Virus record (IMG/VR): IMGVR_UViG_3300033072_001097
Location: 1-64,000 of that record
Length of the DNA stretch: 64,000 nt
Reading direction: 5' to 3' (one strand)
Source of the DNA: a virus
Lineage: Duplodnaviria; Caudoviricetes
A model generated the notes under the pieces. It was not told the DNA's origin. It searched no databases and worked only from the letters and a program-made list of their open reading frames with translations. The translations under genes and the position numbers were made by a program. Shown here in pieces: positions 6,669-37,936 of the stretch; the stretch's first letter is position 1; the number at the start of each line of letters is the position of its first letter.

Positions 6669-7757
6669 TTAGACTTCCGATTGTTCTACTGCATATAATT
6701 CGTCGCCTTCTACGACGATCTCGTTGTGGGTCGTGAAGAGGACCTTTTCGTCCAAACCTTTTCGTCCCTTAACGTCTGCCTCATACCAGGCTAAAAATAA
6801 ATCTTTATGGGTATGTGAATCGTGCTTTGTAATCTCAGTTGGTTCTTGTTTGAGATTCAACCAACGCACAGATTTGGCCCCCATGGACAATAATCTGTTT
6901 TTCATATCCTGCTTTTCTAAGTGTGTATAATCTTTTTGCAGAGCGATACGTACAATATTACCTTTTACGTGTTGCTCTGTCTTCTCGGCTAACAATTCGT
7001 CTAATAATGTTACGAATTGGGGTGGTGCCTCTTCGCCTGGGAGGAATCTCTCACCAGCTTTCCAAATATTGATGAATTTGTGCGTATCGGTATCTAAGTC
7101 TAAACAATAGAAACCATGAGCGACATCGCCCTCATCGAACTTAAAAGGTATTGGCGATCCAGGATACCAGACGTTTTCCCCGATCTGTTGCTTATTATGA
7201 AAATGACCGGTATAAACTTTATGGAATGCAAATTCTTCAAAATCAATTATAGACCAATTCTGTAATAGGAAACAAGTATTCATAGTAGCGCCACGAATAC
7301 CAATATGTGTCAATAAATTATCGCCCTCTTGAGCTTTGGACTGAATAGCCTTGAGGACGCGCATATATGATTTTTCATAAGTTATGAATGGCAACACCCA
7401 AAATCGCGTCTCATCTATTTGCAAAACTTTGACGTCTTCTATTACTGTGAGATGCTTCCGCAGAGGCGTGAGGCTGTTGATATCCCACGAATGTCGCAGG
7501 AACATATCATGATTACCCGGAAACACAATCCATTGTTGGTGGTAATCGTCTGTGGTCTGTTCGAAGAATCGCGAGACATGCGATAACACTTCGATATCTA
7601 GACTGCGGCGATCGTGGAACAAGTCGCCTAAGACTAATACTGTATCGATGCCTGCGGCATAACAATATTCGCGGATTGTGCGACAGGCCCATAAAATGTC
7701 ATTTAGACGTCCTGGGACACCAAAATGAATGTCACTGGTGATTGCTATCTTGGACAT
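6669..7757 (-). CDS. sbcD: SbcD/Mre11/T4 gp47-like metallophosphoesterase nuclease
   Basis: SDIHFG, LGDLFH, GNHD, TGHFH, YPGSP motifs. Confidence 0.92.
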   Translation of the reverse strand: MSKIAITSDIHFGVPGRLNDILWACRTIREYCYAAGIDTVLVLGDLFHDRRSLDIEVLSHVSRFFEQTTDDYHQQWIVFPGNHDMFLRHSWDINSLTPLRKHLTVIEDVKVLQIDETRFWVLPFITYEKSYMRVLKAIQSKAQEGDNLLTHIGIRGATMNTCFLLQNWSIIDFEEFAFHKVYTGHFHNKQQIGENVWYPGSPIPFKFDEGDVAHGFYCLDLDTDTHKFINIWKAGERFLPGEEAPPQFVTLLDELLAEKTEQHVKGNIVRIALQKDYTHLEKQDMKNRLLSMGAKSVRWLNLKQEPTEITKHDSHTHKDLFLAWYEADVKGRKGLDEKVLFTTHNEIVVEGDELYAVEQSEV

Positions 7758-8062: not shown

Positions 8063-8404
8063 ATGAAAGCCAAGCCAATACGTTTAATCCCGTCTCCACC
8101 GGGGTATTGCCAATGTAGTCCAGAAGAGGCGACGCACGTAATTCTACATATGCCTGGTCCAATCCCAGATCGTGTTATTCCGGTACAATTACGTGGTACG
8201 CGAGCGGGAACTGGTAATTGGTCGTGGAATGGCGATACGGAAAAACCAACACTAAAGCCATCTATTAAAACTAGAATGCCACCGGTATGTGAATGTTGCC
8301 ACACACTCGTGAATGATGGTCGGGTGCAATTTTTAACAGATTGCACACACGATCTGGCAGGGCAAACGCTAGATCTATTAGACGTAGATGAGTTTCCGCA
8401 TTAG
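8063..8404 (+). CDS. Conserved small phage/bacterial protein (DUF6527-like)
   Basis: WSWNGDTEKPTLKPSI...CHTLVNDGRVQFLTDCTHDLAGQT pattern. Confidence 0.7.
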   Translation: MKAKPIRLIPSPPGYCQCSPEEATHVILHMPGPIPDRVIPVQLRGTRAGTGNWSWNGDTEKPTLKPSIKTRMPPVCECCHTLVNDGRVQFLTDCTHDLAGQTLDLLDVDEFPH

Positions 8405-8811
8405 GATGACCAAATCTCACCAATTGGTCCGTGAAGCTTTTTGACAATATCTCGCGTGGCATGCTCTGGGCATAAATGATAGACAGAATACCCACCAAAC
8501 CAAACGACATGAGTTGTCCAAATTCCACATTCTTGGCACTTATGTTGCTCGTTGCTCGATTCCGACTCACGTAGATGGAAATCAAGCTCATATTCTAGAT
8601 AACAATCACAAGCTTCTTCGGGGGTGGCGTGCCCATCGGTATGAAATTTATGTCGATGTGGCTCACACGAAGCAACCCATTCTTCATAACCGTGAATGTT
8701 ATGAGGATTATCAGATTTGGGGAAGCCACCGCAGTAGCCGGTTGGATGGCCCTGTCGAGTGAAATCCCATCGTTGGTCGGCTGCTCGCTGTCTGGCACAA
8801 CAATGTTGCAT
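8401..8811 (-). CDS. Cys/His-rich hypothetical protein
   Basis: Start MQHCCARQ with GAGGA RBS; HATPEEACDC, CQEC, LCPEH. Confidence 0.6.
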   Translation of the reverse strand: MQHCCARQRAADQRWDFTRQGHPTGYCGGFPKSDNPHNIHGYEEWVASCEPHRHKFHTDGHATPEEACDCYLEYELDFHLRESESSNEQHKCQECGIWTTHVVWFGGYSVYHLCPEHATRDIVKKLHGPIGEIWSS

Positions 8812-8818
8812 ATTATCC

Positions 8819-9940
8819 TCACAATTCTGGCGTTGCCGATGGCGGCCATTTACAATAAAAAATCTCGTATGACGGTTTCCAAAACACCGGTAATTTTCGT
8901 CGCCGCAGGCAGTATGTGTCTGGGATAAACCTGACAGATAGACCACGATCGGCAAAAAAACTGGTGATCACATCAGTGTCCGGTTTCCCCTCGCACACAT
9001 ATAACACATCCACATTCGCTTCGGCTGTCTGAATGAATTGTATATTTAGATATTTTGCTTGTAATCTATTAGCCAAATTCAAATCATATACGATATTTCC
9101 GTCAGGCGAACGAATTGTATATTCGATGCGGGGGATGAAAGTCTCGATCGCTCTATATTTCCTACCACATCGGCACACCTGAATTTCCGGCGATAAGACC
9201 ATCAAATCGTCTATGGGCCATATTGGGCGCTGTGTCAGATTCAACAAATTGACTATACCGTTTGAGGTAGGAATGAACGTTGGTAAAAAATGCTTTATTC
9301 CGTACTGACAGGTATAAAAATGCATGGTGGTCGTCCAGTTCACCATATTATTATTAAAATGAATTCGTTTGGGTGGGTTTGCGAAGAATCCCTCCCAATT
9401 AGTTGACATCGCGGACGTCAAATTAGAATGATTAAGATAATATCTAAATATTGGATCGGATAACAAATATAACCAGTTATTCGGACAGGAAAATAGGGCG
9501 CATTGACCAATTTGTTTTAGTTGCGATATCAGATATTCCACAGCTCCTGGTTTATCCAACCGTGCGTATATTAAGTAATGATGCGGGATAGTAGCACCAG
9601 GACAATCACGCTCATCGGTACGAAATTGTTCTACTGTTTCCAACATTGGCATCGCCAATGTCACGTATGAACTCTGAAGACGATATTTGGTGTGATCCTC
9701 GAGACATTTCAACCAGAAATCGGTATTTGGTCCGAATGTGATATTTCTGAAATTCCCAGTCGTTCCGCCGCTGGTGAAGAAATAATCAACTAATTGTAAA
9801 CGAATACCAGCCTCGACGCGAAGTGGTATTAGTTCTTCTAATGGTGTCTCAAATTGATATGATAAGATCTTATCCCATAAGTCATAGGCATTTGGCGCGA
9901 TCGGATCATGGTAATATTTCTGATATGCGTCGTAGAGCAT
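8819..9940 (-). CDS. PaaK/CapK-like adenylate-forming ligase (copy 1)
   Basis: P-loop-like FTSGGTTG and C-terminal CRCGRKY; ATG 9940 lies just after the upstream peptide stop; paralog of 33727..34833. Confidence 0.6.
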   Translation of the reverse strand: MLYDAYQKYYHDPIAPNAYDLWDKILSYQFETPLEELIPLRVEAGIRLQLVDYFFTSGGTTGNFRNITFGPNTDFWLKCLEDHTKYRLQSSYVTLAMPMLETVEQFRTDERDCPGATIPHHYLIYARLDKPGAVEYLISQLKQIGQCALFSCPNNWLYLLSDPIFRYYLNHSNLTSAMSTNWEGFFANPPKRIHFNNNMVNWTTTMHFYTCQYGIKHFLPTFIPTSNGIVNLLNLTQRPIWPIDDLMVLSPEIQVCRCGRKYRAIETFIPRIEYTIRSPDGNIVYDLNLANRLQAKYLNIQFIQTAEANVDVLYVCEGKPDTDVITSFFADRGLSVRFIPDTYCLRRRKLPVFWKPSYEIFYCKWPPSATPEL

Positions 9941-9941
9941 G

Positions 9942-10154
9942 CTAACAAGATGCTGGAACTGGTTGTGTCTGGTTGCATACACCAACTGCTATTAAACACA
10001 AACAATCGACCTCCGGCACTCCTGGACTATCAGTACCACTTTCGTATACGCCGCAACGTATCGTATCGCTCTCCATATATTTCTCGACAAGTACCGCCAC
10101 ATCCTGTTCGCCTGGCAGCCCGAATTTTGCTCGTTCTTCTTCTGTGAAAATCAT
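9942..10154 (-). CDS. Putative RiPP precursor peptide (copy 1), 70 aa
   Basis: Lies between rSAM and ligase; leader FTEEERAKFGLP..DVAVLV shared with 34826..35104; Cys-containing C-terminus DCLCLIAVGVC. Confidence 0.55.
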   Translation of the reverse strand: MIFTEEERAKFGLPGEQDVAVLVEKYMESDTIRCGVYESGTDSPGVPEVDCLCLIAVGVCNQTQPVPASC

Positions 10155-10164
10155 GTGTTTGTCC

Positions 10165-11301
10165 TTATGCTAATTTGCCGTCTGCTGCCATCTTTTGTAT
10201 ATGCTCAATGAGTGCTGCTTGGTCACAGATATCACTTAATTTTTTATAAGCGACTTCCGAAGAAGTACATCCTCCCCAGCAATATCCCACAGCGGGACAT
10301 TCACGGCATTTTGGATCGCTGAATACGCACGCTGTTGCATTTAACTCCATTTGCCGTTGATTAATTGTATCAACACTGTCATAAATTGTGCCGAGGTGGC
10401 TACGACTATAGTAGTCGCTCGTGACGTTCCCGTCATAGTCAATGAGCATCATACCGACTCTATATTTACAACATCTTTGTGTTGTTAATTTGGGGCGTTG
10501 CAATGCTTTGGTATAAGAAGCAGTCACCGCCGGTTGCTTTATTGTTGGCAAAATCCGGCTAATTAAAACCTTCTGCACACCGAATTGTATCATTGTTTCA
10601 TAATATTGTCGTCGGTCCTCGACAGTGAACTTGTCACCGTCTACACAAGCTTGGATAATGAGCTTATCTTTTAGACCAGCAAATACGAGTTTCTTTAAAT
10701 TAGCTATTGTGGCTTGATAAGCATTCAGACTCTTGTCTAGAGGTAAGCGTTGATTGTTATGACAATCCTCTAAGCCGTCTATACTGACAGCCATATTGGT
10801 TAACTTCCTGAACAGCTCGAAATGTTTGTCCGTCAGTTCGACTGTGAGGTTTGTAACCATGTGATATGTTATATCTGTCGCTACATCCTCAAGACGCCGC
10901 ATTATCTCCAAACAGCGGTCGACCACCAATAAATTCTCACCGCCACTGAAATGAATTGTTAGCAACGGTGTCTTATATTCTGTGGTATATCTGCGGATGA
11001 AATCGACAATACCTGGAATATCTAGTTCATGATCTTCTTTTGCCACCAATTCATGACTTATTAAACAATGTGGGCATCTGAGATTACATTGTCGAGTGGT
11101 GATAATATGGGTAGAAAATCTCTTTATGCGCTGGTCATACACGCTTTGCAGTGCCTGCTCTTCTTGACCGGCCAAGAAGAAATCTTGCCGTAATTGTTCC
11201 TCAGGAGAGTCCAACGGTAAGGATTTTCTGGTAACGGTGTTGAAATATACTAATCGAGAATTAGTGTCCGTCGTTTGGACGACATGCCGCGATAATCGCA
11301 T
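10165..11301 (-). CDS. Radical SAM/SPASM maturase (copy 1)
   Basis: CNLRCPHC, FSGGE, VSIDG, C-terminal CCKY...CRECPAVGYCWGGC...C. Confidence 0.9.
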   Translation of the reverse strand: MRLSRHVVQTTDTNSRLVYFNTVTRKSLPLDSPEEQLRQDFFLAGQEEQALQSVYDQRIKRFSTHIITTRQCNLRCPHCLISHELVAKEDHELDIPGIVDFIRRYTTEYKTPLLTIHFSGGENLLVVDRCLEIMRRLEDVATDITYHMVTNLTVELTDKHFELFRKLTNMAVSIDGLEDCHNNQRLPLDKSLNAYQATIANLKKLVFAGLKDKLIIQACVDGDKFTVEDRRQYYETMIQFGVQKVLISRILPTIKQPAVTASYTKALQRPKLTTQRCCKYRVGMMLIDYDGNVTSDYYSRSHLGTIYDSVDTINQRQMELNATACVFSDPKCRECPAVGYCWGGCTSSEVAYKKLSDICDQAALIEHIQKMAADGKLA

Positions 11302-11915
11302 TATAGTTGAATCCAGAAATATGATGGTGTGCCACGCCGGTGCCCTAGCTCACCAGTCAAATACATAGAACCTATGCCGTGCGCTAAACGATATGCGGTA
11401 ACTGCCTCAATGATACCAAATCCACCACCCCAGCCTGGACTGGGAGTATAATCGTGCCCCGCAACTATCCCACCACTACGCACCTTCGGTGCCCAATGGA
11501 TTAAATCCACCATCACATTATCAAAATCGTGGGCAGCGTCAATATACACAAAATCCAACGAGCCATTTGGAACAGTGCGAGATGCGTCCACACTAGACAT
11601 CTGTCGGACAGTGACACCAGGAAGATGCCGATATACTCGTCTGGCTCTATTCCTGTGCATCAGCATCTGCTGCTCGTTTACGATGTCGGCGTATGGTAAC
11701 CACTGATCCACGCACAACAGTTTTAGATTCGGATTTGCCGCACATAGCACAGTGGAATAATCGCCCTCGAATACTCCGATTTCTGCGCCGTTGTTGAATC
11801 CTAGTTCTGCGAATAGTGTCGCCAGAGTGACACGGGTGCCTGTTTTAGAATAATATATTGGATATGAATTATCGATTTGGAAACGTTCGGCGATCAGATC
11901 GTGCGTAGAAGCCAT
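11301..11915 (-). CDS. Class I SAM-dependent methyltransferase (Methyltransf_24-like)
   Basis: GAEIGVFEG, LDFVYIDAAH, KVRSGGIVAGHDY. Confidence 0.88.
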   Translation of the reverse strand: MASTHDLIAERFQIDNSYPIYYSKTGTRVTLATLFAELGFNNGAEIGVFEGDYSTVLCAANPNLKLLCVDQWLPYADIVNEQQMLMHRNRARRVYRHLPGVTVRQMSSVDASRTVPNGSLDFVYIDAAHDFDNVMVDLIHWAPKVRSGGIVAGHDYTPSPGWGGGFGIIEAVTAYRLAHGIGSMYLTGELGHRRGTPSYFWIQL

Positions 11916-19452: not shown

Positions 19453-19650
19453 TCAATTAGCGTTAGATGACTCTGCTTGCTCACTCGGTACGCTATGAAC
19501 TTCTAAACGGCATTGTACGCCGCTACATATCATTATACCAACCAGCAAAACCACACACCACAACCAATAATTCGGTCCAGAGTCGTTCTCATCAGTCAAC
19601 CAATCGTCCAATATTTTCATCGCCGCTGGAGTCGGATTTTTAATCTTCAT
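19453..19650 (-). CDS. Small membrane protein
   Basis: One hydrophobic helix; ATGA overlap with sbcC. Confidence 0.55.
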   Translation of the reverse strand: MKIKNPTPAAMKILDDWLTDENDSGPNYWLWCVVLLVGIMICSGVQCRLEVHSVPSEQAESSNAN

Positions 19651-21455
19651 ACGGCCATCCGCAAATGTGAGAAACGATCCTGTCGCACCACTCTGATCTC
19701 ATTCGGGAAAGTATCAAACATCAAGTCCCTGTGCGAAATAACCAAAATGGTTTCCACCTTAGAACTCAAGTCATCCTTAATAATATTAATTAACGCATCA
19801 ATCCCATCATCATCTAGACGCCCATCTACTTCATCTAATACTAATACATTACACTGCCGCCCATACATCTGTTCATGAAAATCAAACATCGCCAACATAA
19901 ATGCCACGTCTGTCCGCTTCCGCTCCCCACCAGACTCAAACTCATACCCCCACAAATTGCTGCTAATCCCCAATGCCGACGTCAACTCCACATGAATATC
20001 CAAGCCAAATACATCTAAGTAATGCTTAATTCGTTCATTGATATATGGAATATGTTCTTGGAATACGTAGCTCTTAATTTTCGCCCGATCGTTGTAAGCC
20101 CTATAAATATATTGGTAATGTTGACTCAAAAATGCCTTCTCTTCGCGATCTTTTTTGATCTTCTCGAGCTTCGTACCGCGACTAGTCAATGCATTTTGTG
20201 CGTCTGTTATTGATTGTTCGTGCGGGTTTACTTCCGTGTCGATGTTTTGGATTTGCCGCTTCAACCTGTCAATTTCCTTCGTCTTCGCAGCATGCCGCTC
20301 ATGTACTGCCTCAGCTTCCTGCATTGACATAGATGGATATTTCTCAGTCACAATCTGATCGGTTTTAGCGATAGTGTTCCGAATTTGCTTATGCTGTTCC
20401 GTCTGCTCCGCTATCAAAGTGGTAATAGAAATTAATTCTGTTTGGAGCGGTTCAATTTTAGTGGCGATATGGTCCTTTGGGACGGGTTGCTCACAGGAAG
20501 TACAAATTTTACCAGACTTCTCAGTCCACAGACCAATTTTTCGTTCTAAAGAATTCTTGGTCCCCGTCAATTCTGCGATATGACTGGCGATCCGGTTGGC
20601 TTCCGCTCGATATTCACCCAGCTTTTTGTTAATTTGGGCGACCACAGCCCATCGAGCTTTGAGCTTATCTAAGTCCGGAAGTTTCATATCAGCCTGTTCG
20701 GCCTTGATTTTGCTTATTACATTCTGTAGTTCTTTTTTGCGAGCTTCTTTCCCGTCTTCAAAAGTGTTTGCAGAATTTTTAAGCCTATCTATTGAGGCGG
20801 TGATGCGTTCAATATCAGAAGTAATACTTTGTATTTGGAGATCAGCGGCGTTTGCGTCGGCCTCGATCCTATCTAGTTTCCCTTTCGCGATTTTCGAATA
20901 ATATTCGAAACGATCGACGTGGAGTGCTCGTTCAATAGCCTTCTTACGCGGCTGATCGGCCATTTCCATCCATGGCTTACTATATTGGTTAAAGAAAACC
21001 GAGCCACAAAACATTTCCCAGTCTAAATTGAAAGCTCGCGTTAACTGCTTCTGCTGATTCTGGATGGTGGATAGAGTGTTAGCAGTGACAATTGTTTCGT
21101 TACCGTCCTTTACGAATACGAGTTCGTTAACACCATCGAGATTTCTGGTGCGAGTGACACTATCACCGTTTTTGAATTCGACCTTAGCCCAGCAATCTTT
21201 TCCGGTGAAATGGTTAACTATTTTACCACCAGGGCTAGGTGAATGCATTGTCCGCCCGAAGAGAACCCATTGGATGACACTGGGGATAGTCGATTTCCCA
21301 GCTCCATTACTCTTGCGAATTGGGTTGTCCTTGTCCTCCGTTTCGAGGACTTCACCTGTGATTAGGCATTGACCTAAGCTGGTGAGATCAATGGTGGAGA
21401 TATAATCTCCATAACTCATGAAGTTCCGCCAAGAGACACTCTTTAATTCAAGCAT
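19647..21455 (-). CDS. sbcC: SbcC/Rad50/T4 gp46-like ATPase
   Basis: Walker A SNGAGKS, coiled coil with zinc hook CTSCEQ, signature ESGGERKR, Walker B VLVLDE, ISH. Confidence 0.93.
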   Translation of the reverse strand: MLELKSVSWRNFMSYGDYISTIDLTSLGQCLITGEVLETEDKDNPIRKSNGAGKSTIPSVIQWVLFGRTMHSPSPGGKIVNHFTGKDCWAKVEFKNGDSVTRTRNLDGVNELVFVKDGNETIVTANTLSTIQNQQKQLTRAFNLDWEMFCGSVFFNQYSKPWMEMADQPRKKAIERALHVDRFEYYSKIAKGKLDRIEADANAADLQIQSITSDIERITASIDRLKNSANTFEDGKEARKKELQNVISKIKAEQADMKLPDLDKLKARWAVVAQINKKLGEYRAEANRIASHIAELTGTKNSLERKIGLWTEKSGKICTSCEQPVPKDHIATKIEPLQTELISITTLIAEQTEQHKQIRNTIAKTDQIVTEKYPSMSMQEAEAVHERHAAKTKEIDRLKRQIQNIDTEVNPHEQSITDAQNALTSRGTKLEKIKKDREEKAFLSQHYQYIYRAYNDRAKIKSYVFQEHIPYINERIKHYLDVFGLDIHVELTSALGISSNLWGYEFESGGERKRTDVAFMLAMFDFHEQMYGRQCNVLVLDEVDGRLDDDGIDALINIIKDDLSSKVETILVISHRDLMFDTFPNEIRVVRQDRFSHLRMAV

Positions 21456-31550: not shown

Positions 31551-32833
31551 ATTCTATACAATTATTGAATATTCTAATTGATAGATATGGATATAAGTCA
31601 TACGCCGGTTTTAATGAATTCACAGATGTGGAATGCTACAGACCGACGCACGGGCTACCAAAACATTTTGATATTATTCATCTAGATTGTTCTACGCCGA
31701 CCATCGAGCAGAATATTCAATTAGCTTTAGGGTATTTAAATCAATATGGTTGCTTAGTCTTGCAAAATTGTTTCACACAGATAGCCAGCATTTGGCGGCT
31801 CATAGTTCAGTTACGGCAATTGAATAATCTAGATACGATGGTTGTCAGTGAAGATGGCGGTATCGGGCTGGTTTTTAAAGTTCCTAATACTGATATATTA
31901 TCAAACGATATTGGTGATACAGAGCGATGTTGTGTAGAATGGTTACGGATAATTTCCGTTAATGACTTGTTGGGTGTGTTACCAGCACCACGTAATCATC
32001 GCAATATTACTGTTTCTGTCGATGCCGCGTGGGGTCGGATAGGTCACCAGTTTAATGATATTATGACAGGCCCGATAGTAGCCGAGCTATTTGGATTGAA
32101 GTTTTGCTACAAGGGCTTCAGTGATTTAGATTCAAATATTAATAATTTTATTAATTTGGCGGATTTCTATGGTAGATTGGATAATGAGAACCCGGTGTTG
32201 GCATTATCCACTTATTTAAATGCACGTAAGTGGTCTGGGATGAGCCTCGAGTTTTTACGCAGATATGTGCGTGTTATTCCGGTTAACACGAATTTGGTGT
32301 TCCGGGAGTCTACTTTTTTCAGTATGAATTCTTTATTGTTGGCTGAACAACGACACGATGTTTTGCCGGGAACGCATGCAAAATTGTTGAAGCAGCTGCG
32401 TGAGTATATTGTTCAAACCCATCTATATAAGTTGTTTAACTCTGATTTTGCCGACAATTCTGTAGTTAACGTGGCTGTGTATGTGCGAGGAGGTGGTAAA
32501 ATTCGAGATAATGCCGGTTATGAATATAGCAAAGCAATATATGACCGCATTCTAGAACGTATCAGGCAAGACTATGAAGGCAAACAGTTGCGTGTTGTGT
32601 ACTATACGCAAGGTCCTATTTCGGATTTAGTTGGTGATTATAGTGAAGAAGATGTTGTTATTTGCGATGATGAGTATCCTAGGATATATGAAATAATTAA
32701 AACTTTTTTGACTGTCGATGTTTTTGTAGCTGGTAATTCTGGTTTCTCCACAACTATTTCGATGTGGAGGGATGGCCCTACATATTGTTCATCCAATCGT
32801 TTTGCATTAAATGGTGATAATATAATTATATAA
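31547..32833 (+). CDS. Methyltransferase-like N-terminus fused to a fucosyltransferase-like domain
   Basis: FDIIHLD..LNQYGCLVL; GRIGHQF, VAVYVRGG, DVFVAGNSGFS. Confidence 0.55.
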   Translation: MNSIQLLNILIDRYGYKSYAGFNEFTDVECYRPTHGLPKHFDIIHLDCSTPTIEQNIQLALGYLNQYGCLVLQNCFTQIASIWRLIVQLRQLNNLDTMVVSEDGGIGLVFKVPNTDILSNDIGDTERCCVEWLRIISVNDLLGVLPAPRNHRNITVSVDAAWGRIGHQFNDIMTGPIVAELFGLKFCYKGFSDLDSNINNFINLADFYGRLDNENPVLALSTYLNARKWSGMSLEFLRRYVRVIPVNTNLVFRESTFFSMNSLLLAEQRHDVLPGTHAKLLKQLREYIVQTHLYKLFNSDFADNSVVNVAVYVRGGGKIRDNAGYEYSKAIYDRILERIRQDYEGKQLRVVYYTQGPISDLVGDYSEEDVVICDDEYPRIYEIIKTFLTVDVFVAGNSGFSTTISMWRDGPTYCSSNRFALNGDNIII

Positions 32834-33710
32834 TTTGTGTGTCTATCGTTTGAGATAGGCAATCTTTTAGTCCTAGAGATGCCAGCTTTTTCCGCATTTT
32901 GTGTAGGGCTATTCTATAATAATTGTAGTAATCAAATAAATGAGTGTCTTTACCGCATTCTATGAGTGTGACGGTGATTTCGGAATAGTGGATGAACACT
33001 ATTGGCATTCCACAAATTAAGGTGGTACTATTCACTCGTTCTCTGGCGAGTGAATCGGCGTTCCATCCTGCCACATTACACCCGTAGTGTTTCAATACTT
33101 CTACGTTATCGAAGTAGATTGGTGCTAGATCCAAATATCGTTGATCGACATAGGTATAAGCTTTTTCCGATCTGGTGCATTCTATGGCACACATTTCTGC
33201 CCACCACGTCAGCATCTTTTCACAACCGGCACCAAATCCGACAAACCCAGCATTATAGATTCCATGTTTGAAATTAAACATGAAGTTGATGTTGAACGGG
33301 CTGATTTGCCGCCAATGTGGGGTGAGAATAACAGATGCCGTCTGTAATTTGTCCATTATGAATTGATAATCTCCGTAGAAGCAGAGATCGCAATCTACAT
33401 AACAGATGATCGGATGTTCTTTTCGCAGGTAACTGATGAAAATTGGCTTCAACGACCATCGTAATTCATCTACAGTCCTGGCATATTTGTTAGCTATGAT
33501 TCGTGCTATACATTGATCTGGCTCACTGATTACCTCTTCCATATCATATACATGGAAGTCAGGAAATATTTTCAACTGGTCGATCGTTTTGGGTTTATAA
33601 TCCACCACCAAGACATGCATTGTAGTTGGCGCGAAAGTATTCAAAGACTCGTGTAAAACGAGTGCTTTATCAATATGATTGGTTGTTACGATGGTCGCAA
33701 AATGATGCAT
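32826..33710 (-). CDS. GT-A glycosyltransferase (GT8-like)
   Basis: Start MHHFATIV with GGAG RBS; YVDCDLCFY, LTPH, YNAGFV, DQRYLDL, NVAGWN. Confidence 0.8.
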   Translation of the reverse strand: MHHFATIVTTNHIDKALVLHESLNTFAPTTMHVLVVDYKPKTIDQLKIFPDFHVYDMEEVISEPDQCIARIIANKYARTVDELRWSLKPIFISYLRKEHPIICYVDCDLCFYGDYQFIMDKLQTASVILTPHWRQISPFNINFMFNFKHGIYNAGFVGFGAGCEKMLTWWAEMCAIECTRSEKAYTYVDQRYLDLAPIYFDNVEVLKHYGCNVAGWNADSLARERVNSTTLICGMPIVFIHYSEITVTLIECGKDTHLFDYYNYYRIALHKMRKKLASLGLKDCLSQTIDTQII

Positions 33711-33726: not shown

Positions 33727-34833
33727 CTATTTATCCACAACCAGATTATCGCGCCAGTCTTTATATTGTGGTGTTGTGAAAGCATTCCAAAATACCGGTA
33801 GCTTTGCGCCCATTCGATAGTATTTATCGCTGATATAACTGGTTGAGAATCCCAATTTTGAAAAATAGTGATGCAGTGTGTCGTCTGGCTGATTCGTGCC
33901 AATATATAATATGTCGATAGTGTTGCCGTGCTGGATGAATTGTAGATTGAGATAAGTTGCGTGTAGTCGGTTGGCTAATTCTAGGTCGAAAACAGTTTGG
34001 CCATTTTTAGTGACGCTGTGTGCGATATGTGGCACAAACTGAAATTGTTGATACTTTCGTCCACATGCACACTGTCGAATCGCTGCCTCGATATGCATAT
34101 GATCATCAATTGGCCACAATGCCGGTCTGCTCAGATTTAACAGGTTGACGATACCGTTTGTTGTCGGTATGAATGTTGGTAAGAAATGTTTGGTCCCATG
34201 TTCACAAGTATAAAAATTCATGGTAGTGGTCCAATTTACCATATTATTATTAAAATGGATATTAGGTGGCGGTGTTTTATAAAATCCCTCCCAGTTGGTT
34301 GAAGTTGCCATTGTTGGTGTATGTTGGCACAGATACTCGCGAAATCGTTGCGACGATAAGAGATATAGCCAGTTATTAGGATTAGTTGATATAGCATATT
34401 CTTCTAATGCTGATAATCTCGTAATCAGAAAGTCCAGACCATTCGGTTTGTGCAGTGGTGCTGAAATAATATGATGAACGGCGTCTTCGCGAATTTGCGA
34501 TGGTGGTATTCTTTGATGATCACAAACGCCACCCATATATGGTATAGCCATAATTGATACGAATTTATTTTGCCGACGACATTTGATGAAGTCTTCGATT
34601 TGTGTTAACCAAAATTCAGTGTGCGGGCCGAATGTAAAATATCTGATATACCCGGATGTGCCATTACTAGCTAGAGAATAATCCGATAAGTGTAACTGCG
34701 GAGCTAGTTTACACCGATATTCTAACAGTTCTGTGAATGGTTCTGAATAATCATATTCCGCAATTTTGGTCCATAATTGTTTTGCTAATTTGAGAGTTGG
34801 GCTCTGGTAGTATCGTAGATAGGCGTCAATCAT
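33727..34833 (-). CDS. PaaK/CapK-like adenylate-forming ligase (copy 2)
   Basis: ASNGTSG, PNNWLYLLS, STNWEGF, CACGRKY; paralog of 8819..9940. Confidence 0.6.
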   Translation of the reverse strand: MIDAYLRYYQSPTLKLAKQLWTKIAEYDYSEPFTELLEYRCKLAPQLHLSDYSLASNGTSGYIRYFTFGPHTEFWLTQIEDFIKCRRQNKFVSIMAIPYMGGVCDHQRIPPSQIREDAVHHIISAPLHKPNGLDFLITRLSALEEYAISTNPNNWLYLLSSQRFREYLCQHTPTMATSTNWEGFYKTPPPNIHFNNNMVNWTTTMNFYTCEHGTKHFLPTFIPTTNGIVNLLNLSRPALWPIDDHMHIEAAIRQCACGRKYQQFQFVPHIAHSVTKNGQTVFDLELANRLHATYLNLQFIQHGNTIDILYIGTNQPDDTLHHYFSKLGFSTSYISDKYYRMGAKLPVFWNAFTTPQYKDWRDNLVVDK

Positions 34834-35104
34834 CTTCTAATTCGGCTGCTGGGATACTGGCTGAAATAGCACATTCAGTCCCGTTCCACCCTGTACCACC
34901 CGCTGTACAAAATGTGCAGCTGCAATATGCATTGGCTATTGCGTAATCGCTGCCCCAGGAGGATGCTTGGACATTTCCGCTGGCCAACTCCGCTTGGCGG
35001 CGGCGTTGCACAAAGATGACTACTTCATCATTACTGGGTAGGCCGAGTTGAACCCTCTCGATTTCGGTGAAATATTCTTGTCGGACGAGTGGTGAGTGAC
35101 TCAT
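34826..35104 (-). CDS. Putative RiPP precursor peptide (copy 2), 92 aa
   Basis: Leader FTEIERVQLGLP..EVVIFV; C-terminus YCSCTFCTAGGTGWNGTEC; overlaps both neighbours. Confidence 0.55.
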   Translation of the reverse strand: MSHSPLVRQEYFTEIERVQLGLPSNDEVVIFVQRRRQAELASGNVQASSWGSDYAIANAYCSCTFCTAGGTGWNGTECAISASIPAAELEDD

Positions 35105-36291
35105 ATGTTGATATGCCTTTCATCTGGTTTGTTAACTTGTGGGATCAGATTACCTTCTTTTGCCAGCGATTCAACATGCGCTATTAGGCCATGCTGATCA
35201 CAATATTTACTGAGATTATGTCCAGTGTTTTCGACTACCGTGCATCCACCCCAGCAATATCCTACTACTGGACATTCTTTACATTTCGGATCGTTAAACA
35301 CTGGCATCGTGTTTAAAGTAAGTTTGGCTTGTTGTTTTTCCAACGTTTCGAGATCGTCGTATATCGTTCCTATCGGAGTATATGTATAATAATCGCTGAA
35401 TATATTTCCTGAGCAATCAGTTAAATAAATATGTTGTCGATACTTACAACAACATCGTTGGCTGAGTCGCGGTTGCCGCAAACCGCTGATATACATGTCA
35501 CTAGGTTGTGGATGTAATTTGGTTGGTGATATCGTTCCAATATTTATTCGGTCATAAGCAACGCCGAACCGTACGATCATTTCATAGACTGCTAAGCGGT
35601 TCTCCAGTGTGTTGAATTCGTCTTTTAGACAAGCTTGGACTTCGATCTTGTCTTTGAGCCCTGCTAATACTAATTTGCGTAGATTTGACATGCTCACTTC
35701 GAATGGATTTATATGCCCATTTAATGGGATTCTTTGCGTATTGTGTTGTTCTTCTAGGCCGTCTATGCTTACGCCTATAGAATACAATTTCCGCAAGAAG
35801 TCGATGTGTTCTTCTGTTAGTTCGACTGCCAAATTTGTGTATAGACTAAATCTGGTTTCTAGTCCTTCAATAGATGATATAGAATCCATTAATTCCACGC
35901 ACTTGGGGACAGCCAACAAACTTTCCCCACCATAGAATTGGATGGGAAAGTTTGTTGTTCCATATCTCGCCATACACCGCAGTGCAAAATCTTTGATGGC
36001 TGGAACGTCTATTTCCTTTTCTTGTGATCTCACTAATTGATGCTTCACCATACAATGTGTGCATCGTAGATTGCATTCCCAAGTCGGCGCAACGAACAAG
36101 AAAAATGATTTACCCATAGGACGCCGCATGATTTGCCATACCAAAGCATCATGCTCCTGACCAGCTAGGAAGAACTTGGAGTGAAAGCGATCTATAGTTG
36201 CATCAATTGGTAAATGTCGCCGTGTAACTGTATTAAAATATACTTGTTGATTATTGTGGGTGGTTTGTACAACATATTTCGAAAATCCCAT
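35101..36291 (-). CDS. Radical SAM/SPASM maturase (copy 2)
   Basis: CNLRCTHC, FYGGE, VSIDG, CCCKY...CKECPVVGYCWGGC...C. Confidence 0.9.
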   Translation of the reverse strand: MGFSKYVVQTTHNNQQVYFNTVTRRHLPIDATIDRFHSKFFLAGQEHDALVWQIMRRPMGKSFFLFVAPTWECNLRCTHCMVKHQLVRSQEKEIDVPAIKDFALRCMARYGTTNFPIQFYGGESLLAVPKCVELMDSISSIEGLETRFSLYTNLAVELTEEHIDFLRKLYSIGVSIDGLEEQHNTQRIPLNGHINPFEVSMSNLRKLVLAGLKDKIEVQACLKDEFNTLENRLAVYEMIVRFGVAYDRINIGTISPTKLHPQPSDMYISGLRQPRLSQRCCCKYRQHIYLTDCSGNIFSDYYTYTPIGTIYDDLETLEKQQAKLTLNTMPVFNDPKCKECPVVGYCWGGCTVVENTGHNLSKYCDQHGLIAHVESLAKEGNLIPQVNKPDERHINI

Positions 36292-37007
36292 TACGCATCC
36301 CTAAGAAAAATAACCGGATTAGTAGCAGCGCGACTTTTGGCTACCGTTATCCAATCTACATCGTGCTCTATAGCCCAAATTGAATTCGGATGACTTCGCT
36401 TTTGTACTAATATTTCTGGCACAATATCTATAGCGAACTCTCGATTGAGTCGTAACCAATAATTGTAGTCTTGCGCACATCGGACGGTAGGATCAAAATA
36501 ACCGATTCGTTCAAAAGCCTGCCTAGTGAACATCGCGCCGGGCGACAATACACAATTTTTTTCTGGTAGTAATCTTTCGACTTCATCACCAGTCTGACAC
36601 ACGTCTGCCAGCCAAGCATCTGGTACAACATTTCCATTTTCGTCGATGGCTTCTGCCCAGCAACTTACTAGACCAACTCTGTTGGTCATTAATGCTAACT
36701 CTCTGTTCAATCGGTCTGGGAAAGCGATGTCATCGCCATCGTGTCTGGCGAATATTGTACCAGTGGCTTGGTCGATAGCTATGTTCAGGCATTTGGTTAA
36801 TCCAATGTTGCGTGCAAGTCGGATTATTTTTAGGCGTGGGTCGTAATAACAACGAAGAATATCTTGGACGTCATTATCAGAGCCATCATCTACCAGAATT
36901 ACTTCTAAATCTTTAAGAGTTTGATTTAATATGCTATCTAACGATGCTCGTAAAAATTCTGAGCAATTGTATACAGCCATTATCACGGAAACTAAGGGTG
37001 CGTTCAT
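36291..37007 (-). CDS. Glycosyltransferase family 2
   Basis: VSVIMAVYN, VDDGS, RHDGDD, QDY. Confidence 0.9.
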   Translation of the reverse strand: MNAPLVSVIMAVYNCSEFLRASLDSILNQTLKDLEVILVDDGSDNDVQDILRCYYDPRLKIIRLARNIGLTKCLNIAIDQATGTIFARHDGDDIAFPDRLNRELALMTNRVGLVSCWAEAIDENGNVVPDAWLADVCQTGDEVERLLPEKNCVLSPGAMFTRQAFERIGYFDPTVRCAQDYNYWLRLNREFAIDIVPEILVQKRSHPNSIWAIEHDVDWITVAKSRAATNPVIFLRDA

Positions 37008-37936
37008 AGGTAGACAAAATTACCGACCGGCTCGCGTAATGGTAATTGTTGTTGTACAACATCTGTGACTATTAGCGTGCCGAACCATAATAATCGTTGC
37101 CGGAGCTGAACCACAATGACGTGTCTGTCTAACGCTTGTAGCATCTTATCTACGTCTAACGAGGATGGATGGTCTGAGAATAATAGGTACTCAGCGTTCG
37201 TGTTCCGGATAACATCATTGATCACTCTGAGATCATATGGGATAACCAAATGGGCGTTATTGTCTATGGGGTAGTCACCACTAATCTGGATTAATTTGAC
37301 CTGGTCACAACATACACCTTTGGCTATATGAAACGGGAGGTCGTCAATATTCTTGGAGCGATTTGACTGATGTTCTCTATGGAAATGAATTCCGGTTTGT
37401 TTGGTTGTCGGGCATCCGGCTCGAATTAGCCGTCGCCAAAATACCCAATCTTCGTGGCAATTGAGAGGTGGTGTGGGATAGAAAGCATCACTTATTTCGA
37501 TGCTCTGTCTACTCACTAGACTGGCTACTGCCAAATAATTTTCTTGTGATATACATTGTTGATGATAGAATAGTTTGCGATCGATGTTGCCAAATTGTTG
37601 TACATCGCAATATACGATATTATTGTCTGTTTTGACCGCTAGGCCAGCGGCAATATAGTCATCACTGATAAAGTCGTCAGCGTCTAAGAAACAGACGACT
37701 TCTTTGGTGGTTTGTTCAAATCCAGCTTTGCGACTAAGAAAAGGGTTGCCGTATTGTACCTGTAGATATGGGAGCAGTGTAATGCTAGGTTTGGTCTGGT
37801 CGTATACTATTAATATCTCATCTGGCGGGACTGTTTGGGTGCAAACACTGTCCAGAGCTTTGGGAAGGTATTGATGATATTCATCACAGCATGTGATGAC
37901 AACGCTGACAGTGCGTTTGTGGTTGTCTAATATCAT
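37004..37936 (-). CDS. Glycosyltransferase family 2
   Basis: VSVVIT, FLDADD, EDWVFW. Confidence 0.85.
   Translation of the reverse strand: MILDNHKRTVSVVITCCDEYHQYLPKALDSVCTQTVPPDEILIVYDQTKPSITLLPYLQVQYGNPFLSRKAGFEQTTKEVVCFLDADDFISDDYIAAGLAVKTDNNIVYCDVQQFGNIDRKLFYHQQCISQENYLAVASLVSRQSIEISDAFYPTPPLNCHEDWVFWRRLIRAGCPTTKQTGIHFHREHQSNRSKNIDDLPFHIAKGVCCDQVKLIQISGDYPIDNNAHLVIPYDLRVINDVIRNTNAEYLLFSDHPSSLDVDKMLQALDRHVIVVQLRQRLLWFGTLIVTDVVQQQLPLREPVGNFVYL

Follow-up and report, generated by a model that had tools for sequence, protein, structure and literature searches.

Within the peptides that are ribosomally synthesized and then modified post-translationally (RiPPs), sactipeptide and ranthipeptide systems of the SCIFF/CteB and PapB type pair a SPASM-type radical S-adenosylmethionine (rSAM) enzyme with a short, cysteine-bearing precursor that carries a conserved leader. 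Here we describe a 64,000-nucleotide stretch of viral DNA (Duplodnaviria; Caudoviricetes; positions 1 to 64,000 of IMG/VR record IMGVR_UViG_3300033072_001097), hereafter the window, in which two cassettes each code for an rSAM enzyme of this kind, a small precursor-like peptide and a ligase that is predicted to have the ANL fold. The likeness to the known systems is considerable: CteB is the best structural match to the modelled phage enzyme over its whole length, PapB and the SCIFF maturase stand among its best NCBIfam neighbours, and a SPASM-type rSAM enzyme next to a Cys-rich precursor is in itself an arrangement of an already known kind. In contrast to the SCIFF/CteB and PapB systems, the rSAM enzymes described here score far below the family cutoffs, have an N-terminal domain of about 55 residues instead of a full RiPP recognition element (RRE), and begin their SPASM motif with a CC doublet followed by G-x4-D rather than with C-x(9-15)-G-x4-C; moreover, they have an obligatory ANL-fold ligase partner and are carried by jumbo phages. 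What is new is this obligatory partner from an unnamed family, the presence of two cassettes in jumbo phages, and their wiring into operons of glycosyltransferase (GT) and methyltransferase (MT) genes.

The closest described relatives of the ligase are PaaK-family ANL enzymes, which include the coenzyme A-independent ester and amide formers NatL2, AjiA1 and ClxA, and with which it shares a two-domain fold, a P-loop-like motif and an invariant C-terminal Lys. It differs from them in being about 60 residues shorter (always ~350-390 aa), in having no detectable sequence similarity to them, in an invariant Cys210-His216-Cys255-Cys257 set, and in its genomic partners, which are an rSAM enzyme and a peptide and not an aromatic-acid pathway. 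The joint use of a ligase and a SPASM rSAM enzyme is also known from the bacterial grasp-with-spasm families of NCBIfam, where one precursor is served by an ATP-grasp carboxylate ligase and a SPASM rSAM enzyme; compared by description only, the present system departs from these in that its ligase has an ANL fold and not an ATP-grasp fold, and no relation in sequence was noticed. In mycofactocin and pyrroloquinoline quinone (PQQ) biosynthesis a SPASM rSAM enzyme likewise acts on a small ribosomal peptide, and the genes for family 2 glycosyltransferases (GT2) and MTs that flank the present cassettes recall the mycofactocin pathway, which also uses GT2 and methylation. Unlike those pathways, the cassettes lack both a separate RRE chaperone and a reactive dipeptide fixed at the C-terminus, their cores are variable, and their precursors can occur in tandem.

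A phage-borne precedent is sublancin on prophage SPbeta, where genes for a modified Cys peptide are likewise accompanied by a GT2-family enzyme. The sublancin pathway is not known to use an rSAM or an ANL enzyme. RiPP pathways have rarely been reported in phages, and a survey found phage biosynthetic gene clusters to be rare, mostly bacteriocins and mainly located on temperate phages (10.1101/2020.10.01.322628). In contrast to SPbeta-type clusters, the cassettes described here lie on uncultured jumbo-phage contigs, including a 354 kb record that is 98% complete, together with genes for SbcCD, a helicase and a DNA polymerase. Our literature searches returned no relevant paper joining PaaK, radical SAM and a precursor peptide, or phage, SPASM and RiPP, and no description of an ANL enzyme that partners a SPASM rSAM enzyme in peptide maturation. 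Several uncultured jumbo phages keep the cassette, often as two old, diverged copies in GT/MT operons and in at least one habitat, activated sludge, which raises the question of what a large phage would gain from making a modified peptide during infection.

Two copies of a three-gene cassette

The source record is 92.5 kb long and has a CheckV completeness of 25%, which would put the whole genome at several hundred kb. Besides genes for a helicase, a DNA polymerase and SbcC/SbcD-like nucleases, the window contains two triads of rSAM gene, small open reading frame (ORF) and ligase gene, both on the minus strand and about 25 kb apart. Copy 1 comprises a radical SAM/SPASM-type enzyme (10165..11301, 378 aa), a precursor-like peptide (9942..10154, 70 aa) and a predicted ANL-fold, PaaK-like ligase (8819..9940, 373 aa counted from the ATG at 9940; a longer, TTG-started frame extends to 9985, and homologues begin at the ATG). 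An AAGGA sequence, read as a ribosome-binding site, stands 8 nt ahead of the peptide ATG, and a single base separates the peptide stop codon TAG from the start codon of the ligase, an ATG. Copy 2 comprises a radical SAM/SPASM-type enzyme (35101..36291, 396 aa), a precursor-like peptide (34826..35104, 92 aa) and a predicted ANL-fold ligase (33727..34833, 368 aa), the junctions between these genes being overlaps of 4 nt and 8 nt.

An earlier note on this DNA had described the same two triads and their common gene order, had listed motifs shared between the two rSAM enzymes and between the two ligases, and had stated that the middle ORFs resemble each other only N-terminally, with CxC in common. 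All six ORFs are indeed present on the minus strand at these coordinates, and each of the named motifs was found in pairwise BLASTP alignments, in which the two rSAM enzymes are 44% identical (E 4e-121) and the two ligases 46% identical (E 9e-113). The small ORFs share 29% identity over their N-terminal 52 residues only (E 1e-6), in agreement with that description, and in a six-frame scan of the window the leader motif matched these two small ORFs alone.

The radical SAM enzyme resembles SPASM-type peptide maturases

Both rSAM enzymes belong to the radical SAM superfamily, with 36.4 bits (copy 1) and 34.3 bits (copy 2) against Pfam Radical_SAM PF04055 (cutoff 29.5), and the closest NCBIfam neighbours of both are without exception peptide or protein maturases, namely HxsB, PapB, the SCIFF maturase, anSME and CcpM (E 1e-13 to 1e-17). 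The equivalogs of named thioether maturases, PapB NF047865, SCIFF TIGR03974 and HxsB TIGR03978, gave 45-63 bits against cutoffs of 340-425. With NCBIfam scores this far below the cutoffs, the chemistry of the rSAM enzyme cannot be read from family membership. PADLOC returned generic rSAM (viperin) similarity only, at 35-38 bits, and no match for the peptides.

Across the 16 sequences of the rSAM clade, the CxxxCxxC cluster motif (C72/C76/C79) and seven further Cys residues (C277, C278, C332, C335, C341, C345 and C359) are invariant. The canonical seven-Cys SPASM motif, C-x9-15-G-x4-C ... C-x2-C-x5-C-x3-C ... C, binds two auxiliary clusters; its second part, C-x2-C-x5-C-x3-C with the final Cys, is preserved without change in the clade, and its first half takes the form of the CC doublet with G-x4-D noted above. 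The Pfam SPASM model matched neither enzyme, and relatives carry the JGI product name 'SPASM domain'.

The AlphaFold2 (AF2) model of the copy 1 enzyme has a predicted local distance difference test score (pLDDT) of 90.5. Its best structural match is CteB (5why; Z 22.3, root-mean-square deviation (rmsd) 6.1, 339 aa aligned), ahead of ChlB (9gm3; Z 21.3, rmsd 4.0, 308 aa) and anSMEcpe (4k36; Z 21.2, rmsd 4.0, 306 aa). The alignments with CteB, ChlB and anSME span the whole enzyme including its C-terminal cluster domain, and TigE, SuiB and SkfB come next in the list. Pfam, the NCBIfam neighbours and the structural matches thus agree with the earlier suggestion of a SPASM-type enzyme that resembles peptide maturases, and we conclude that the rSAM protein, as modelled, is probably a SPASM-type peptide-modifying enzyme, outside all named equivalogs.

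The small peptide has the features of a precursor and is modelled on the rSAM enzyme

The peptides fall into two types. Only three elements are common to those of type A, which include both copies in the window: an invariant CxC, a motif resembling GT[ND]S and the leader block, which reads [FY]-T-[ED]-x-E...G-[LI]-P...[DE]. The remainder varies, including the length of the core. In the copy 1 peptide the leader block covers approximately residues 2-27 and is followed by a GTDS motif, the invariant CxC (C51 and C53) and a C-terminal Cys. The copy 2 peptide shares this leader block, its core contains CxCxxC...NGT.C, and it is orthologous to two tandem precursors in a syntenic 113 kb record (L005). 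In peptides of type B, found in L003, L014 and, distantly, L008, the leader is rich in Lys and the end is of the GGC...C...CP type. A search with a peptide profile returned only peptides that were already known.

Between the tandem precursors of L005, 32 of 83 codons show synonymous differences and 11 non-synonymous ones, the latter mostly in the last residues, which implies translated precursor genes under purifying selection. In a related strain (run X6), 11 of the 15 differences in the copy 1 peptide are listed; they comprise five synonymous and six mostly conservative non-synonymous changes, and none falls at a Cys or in leader residues 1-18. In the copy 1 ligase of the same strain, 22 of the 28 listed differences are synonymous. 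Judged by sequence, a precursor whose core evolves faster than its constrained leader would be expected to show such a pattern, and a folded subunit would not.

In addition, the features that characterize RiPP precursors were found together: a short gene next to the maturase gene, a conserved leader, a variable Cys-containing core and, in L005, tandem copies. The earlier note had read the small ORF as a leader followed by a variable core, and had held that conservation over the full length as a folded subunit, or absence of linkage to the rSAM gene elsewhere, would speak against that reading. Neither was observed; the small ORF accompanies the rSAM clade in all eight informative loci described below, and the leader block is the part of the peptide that is modelled on the enzyme.

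That model, of a kind which the earlier note had put forward as a check, gave a score of 0.78 for the copy 1 rSAM enzyme with the copy 1 peptide, against 0.01 for the best of three controls; the mark used for such scores is attained by 58 of 80 solved complexes and by 2 of 110 mismatched pairs. Each partner was given its own alignment, the model runs had at least 25% of contacts in common, and the partner pLDDT was at least 52. The confident contacts join peptide residues 1-33, which contain the conserved block, to rSAM residues 199-249 (two helices, 194-207 and 227-238, with the intervening strands), and the core was not placed. In the structural alignment, the N-terminal domain of the rSAM enzyme pairs with the N-terminal region of CteB from residue 4 of the model; the modelled leader contacts lie at 199-249 instead. 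The complex model supports binding of the leader by the rSAM enzyme.

ChlB, the second structural match, is a triceptide cyclophane synthase (PMC12912966). For the copy 1 peptide a cyclophane (triceptide) reading is unlikely, since there is no aromatic residue from the V-D-C-L-C stretch to the C-terminus.

Cores of the copy 2 type (34826-35104 in the window; 5426-5988 in L005) keep N-G-T next to a Cys and lie in an operon with at least three glycosyltransferase-like genes; N-x-T, as in N-G-T, is a sequon-like motif.

The ligase founds an unnamed family with a predicted ANL fold

The ligase had no match in Pfam, NCBIfam (E 0.1), PHROG or PADLOC, the TIGR02155 profile gave zero matches in the record, and a ligase profile found 0 matches among PDB sequences at E 10. 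When aligned with E. coli PaaK by hhalign, it reached a probability of 0.4, with a weak local alignment that does not pair CxCG with a like motif. The assignment comes instead from structure prediction. Foldseek searches with the AF2 model of the copy 2 ligase (15 homologues, pLDDT 85.7) retrieved ClxA, BT_0428, AjiA1, NatL2 and PaaK at E ~1e-7 and probability 1.0, VIA-align paired 303 aa of the model with PaaK1 (2y27; Z 14.9, rmsd 4.9), and the best matches in BFVD were viral AMP-ligases. The ESM Atlas gave no usable match; its own ligase model is of low quality, with a pLDDT of 0.38. The models thus point to a two-domain ANL fold of the PaaK type. Of the earlier proposal of a PaaK/CapK-like ANL ligase, the fold is borne out by Foldseek and by the match to PaaK1, and the use of CxCGR as a PaaK mark is contradicted by the hhalign result: this motif marks the new ligase family and is not an established mark of PaaK.

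An exhaustive profile search delimits this new family to 248 clusters at 50% identity, 139 of them at E <1e-30, with proteins that are nearly all 340-395 aa long. The ten clusters that we checked consist entirely of unnamed metagenome proteins without annotation, several of them on contigs of 170-650 kb, and the ligase is the founding member of a previously unnamed family with this fold.

Across 103 family members C210, H216, C255, C257 and K344 are invariant; nearly invariant as well are a DD hinge (D244) and a P-loop-like motif, [ST]-[NS]-G-[ST]-[TS]-G-x-x-[RK]. Within the P-loop, position 56 is S/T in 100% of the 103 sequences, G58 is found in 92 of 93 ungapped ones, position 59 is S/T, G61 occurs in the majority and position 64 is R/K in 56; K344 follows G342 in a G-x-K context. 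The A3 P-loop of ANL enzymes reads [ST]-[SG]-G-[ST]-[TS]-G-x-P-K, and their catalytic Lys is located in motif A10. K344 would correspond to the A10 lysine and the P-loop-like motif to A3, an equivalence that follows from order and fold and not from residue-level superposition, and the C210-H216-C255-C257 set is probably a zinc site.

The cassette recurs in other viral records

In 8 of 8 informative loci the ligase lies together with a small Cys-rich ORF and an enzyme of the rSAM clade, in three different gene orders; these loci, which have enough flanking sequence, are the two in the window and L002, L003, L004, L005, L012 and L014. Locus L005 is fully syntenic with copy 2 and contains, in order, two GT2 genes, the rSAM gene, tandem ORFs of 92 and 91 aa, the ligase gene and two copies of a gene that also lies downstream of the ligase in the window. 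A 340 kb phage (L004/L013) has the order rSAM, 57-aa ORF, ligase; L002 has peptide, ligase, rSAM; and in L003 the ligase is followed by a 2-oxoglutarate-Fe(II) oxygenase, the rSAM enzyme and the peptide. L012 and L014 are two cassettes in a single phage, the 354 kb record mentioned above. In a more distant variant (L008) the ligase is kept, the peptide is rich in Cys and Gly, and the rSAM enzyme is a different one. GT2 and MT genes stand beside most cassettes, and the triad persists while the GT and MT families change: a GT2 family common to L003, L004 and L014, together with Methyltransf_23, flanks other cassettes.

Two cassettes each are found in the phage of the window, in G001 and in G002. 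A recent duplication within the genome was considered for the two copies in the window and rejected, because the copy 1 ligase goes with P0012 (65% identity) and the copy 1 rSAM enzyme with P0171 (55% identity), both with 100% support. The trees group each copy with relatives from other samples and not with each other, so that the cassette copies would be old paralogues or separate acquisitions.

Searches of other collections were largely negative. GenBank phage records (n=50,697) gave no match to blastn of the region or to tblastn of the ligase and rSAM enzyme, and prokaryote genome contigs scanned with the ligase profile contained no relative. Among viral contigs, a first single-sequence scan gave no match, a degenerate DNA pattern picked out 9 stretches in which a ligase is coded only in the known L005 locus, and a broad-profile scan with a very narrow pattern added only L021. 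Pieces identical to window positions 8819-11301 were found in activated-sludge metagenome contigs, for which X4 and X5 may be a single data set that was deposited two times. A strain that differs by ~3-4% is present in two more runs, which are unlabelled. There were no RNA data among the public runs listed.

Several of these records hold further points of interest. At L013 1-2067 (G002:C1:113893-116142), a few kb from the full cassette of the 340 kb phage, there is a much more diverged second pair, in which an ORF resembling the ligase (E 4e-12 against the family profile) is convergent with a 22%-identical rSAM gene. At L008 5401-9374, on a low-GC viral contig, a ligase homologue is accompanied by a protein with a zinc ribbon, an ORF of 69 aa that is rich in Cys and Gly, and a longer rSAM enzyme (493 aa) that matches Pfam Radical_SAM only. 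At L006/L007 4044-9483 a ligase homologue follows GT2 and Methyltransf_24 genes and directly precedes what, by our reading of the ORFs, are putative scaffold and major capsid genes, a context which hints that part of the ligase family may serve virion or glycan modification.

A proposed maturation pathway and its alternatives

We believe, with a probability of about 0.65, that each cassette is a RiPP-like maturation unit composed of a leader-guided SPASM rSAM enzyme, an ANL-fold ligase and tailoring by GT2 and MT enzymes. The gene content, folds, linkage and selection described above, together with the modelled contact between leader and enzyme, are what the analysis shows; which reactions occur and in which sequence, what they yield and what part this plays in infection are inferred. 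The cassettes would be accessory cargo of a jumbo phage, and the small ORF would code for a precursor with an N-terminal recognition block, a short GT[ND]S-like motif and a CxC within a variable, Cys-bearing core. The SPASM rSAM enzyme would dock the leader and modify the core, most likely by chemistry at or from Cys, such as thioether cross-links of the sactipeptide or ranthipeptide type or another Cys-directed radical reaction. Within the same pathway, the ligase would then use ATP to activate a carboxylate, either that of the peptide or that of a small acid, and so form a bond of the amide, ester or thioester kind, and the adjacent GT2 and methyltransferases probably tailor the same product. 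Of these proposals, thioether chemistry and acylation or amide formation are guesses.

We put forward a more far-reaching version tentatively. According to this, the cassettes could represent a new RiPP class largely of huge phages, in which the rSAM enzyme cross-links a CxC core, a probably zinc-bearing ANL ligase cyclises or conjugates the peptide via an adenylated carboxylate, GT2 and MT enzymes decorate it, and two non-redundant versions serve during infection, either in competing with other bacteria or phages or in manipulating the host.

Several observations weigh against the reading of the cassettes as RiPP-like maturation units, and two are the main ones. Neither operon has a leader peptidase, a double-Gly site or an exporter, and the peptidase and exporter that a complete RiPP cluster would include were not found among the scanned neighbours, several of which belong to no family at all. 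Ligase homologues also occur without the clade rSAM enzyme in the partial records of L006/L007 and L021, where they are accompanied by GT2 and, in L006, by a methyltransferase gene. Besides these, the rSAM enzyme scores far under every NCBIfam maturase cutoff (59-63 bits against 340-370), and its N-terminal domain of only ~55 residues, with three strands and two short helices, is too short for a canonical RRE, which is a leader-binding winged helix of ~85-100 aa. At the level of sequence the ligase resembles neither E. coli PaaK nor any protein of solved structure, and it is tied to the peptide by linkage alone. The alignments behind the complex model are shallow, and its high score may partly reflect the solved leader-rSAM complexes of CteB, SuiB and ChlB.

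Because neither an exporter nor a peptidase is seen, one may ask whether the peptide is itself the product, or rather a scaffold that is sacrificed to make a cofactor or small molecule, as happens in the PQQ, mycofactocin or pearlin pathways. The rSAM enzyme would then oxidise or cross-link a few residues of the core, and the GT, MT and ligase enzymes would build on these or release a small glycosylated, methylated compound. The recurrent combination of SPASM rSAM enzyme, small peptide, GT2 and methyltransferase genes is in favour of a scaffold, since it resembles the set of mycofactocin genes, and so is the tiny invariant part of the core, which amounts to CxC. Yet the cores vary strongly in length and sequence and the peptides are of two types, whereas the reactive end of cofactor precursors is fixed; a gene for a separate RRE chaperone of the PqqD/MftB kind was not found, and the PqqE and MftC models are not among the best 25 of 61 and the best 25 of 55 NCBIfam matches. 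We consider a scaffold role unlikely. The same flanking genes can be seen in a second way, in which ligase, GT2s and MTs act on sugars or structural proteins in a pathway for glycans or virion glycosylation, and the rSAM enzyme and small protein form an accessory redox or metal-binding pair. Most cassettes are flanked by GT2 and MT genes, and the ligase homologues of L006/L007, which lack the clade rSAM enzyme and lie with GT2 and Methyltransf_24 directly upstream of putative scaffold and capsid genes, would fit such a role. However, the small ORF has neither the fixed Cys spacing nor the full-length conservation that would suit a metal-binding fold, its conserved block is modelled on the rSAM enzyme with clean controls, the nearest structural relatives of that enzyme all modify peptides or proteins, and the triad is kept as the GT and MT families change. 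We regard this pathway as slightly less probable than a scaffold.

A third possibility accepts that the peptide is modified but changes the chemistry: an anSME-like rSAM enzyme would oxidise a Cys of the CxC to formylglycine, and the aldehyde would serve as a handle for conjugation, with no thioether rings. The sole invariant feature of the core is Cys-x-Cys, and anSME is among the best neighbours by sequence (TIGR03942, E 4e-13 to 4e-14) as well as by structure (4k36, with the alignment given above). On the other hand, no sulfatase-type C/S-x-P-x-R motif follows the Cys, the scores of 49-52 bits fall well short of the anSME cutoff of 349, and anSME works without a leader, whereas the leader block here is conserved and modelled as the contact with the enzyme. 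Of the three alternatives we regard formylglycine formation as the least probable.

Neighbouring genes and genomic context

Copy 2 is located within a glycosyltransferase operon. This opens with a GT2 gene at 37004..37936 (minus strand; Pfam PF00535, E 2.4e-12), which is followed by a second GT2 gene at 36291..37007 (minus strand; PF00535, E 1.9e-28) whose stop codon overlaps the start of the copy 2 rSAM gene; both are syntenic in L005. Downstream of the copy 2 ligase lies a conserved, putatively GT8-like gene at 32826..33710 (minus strand), which codes for 294 aa from an internal ATG that matches the L005 orthologues and has no Pfam match at E 0.01; its orthologues are the two copies that follow the ligase in L005. 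Promoter and terminator scans did not delimit the operon, with 5 terminator-like sites against 5.9 expected.

Copy 1 is preceded by a gene for a SAM-dependent methyltransferase of the Methyltransf_24 family at 11301..11915 (minus strand; Pfam PF13578, E 2.8e-15), the stop codon of which overlaps the start of the rSAM gene, and which is likely a tailoring gene of copy 1. Directly downstream of the copy 1 ligase, a small Cys/His-rich ORF at 8401-8955 (minus strand), with C-x-C and C-x2-C pairs and no Pfam match, has a listed TTG start that overlaps the ligase end.

On a larger scale, the accessory genes among which copy 1 sits fill the roughly 12 kb from sbcD to sbcC. Genes for SbcD-like and SbcC-like nucleases commonly adjoin each other; in the window they lie at 6669-7757 and 19647-21455, and the mostly unannotated minus-strand genes that split them, copy 1 among them, look like an accessory island inserted between the two.

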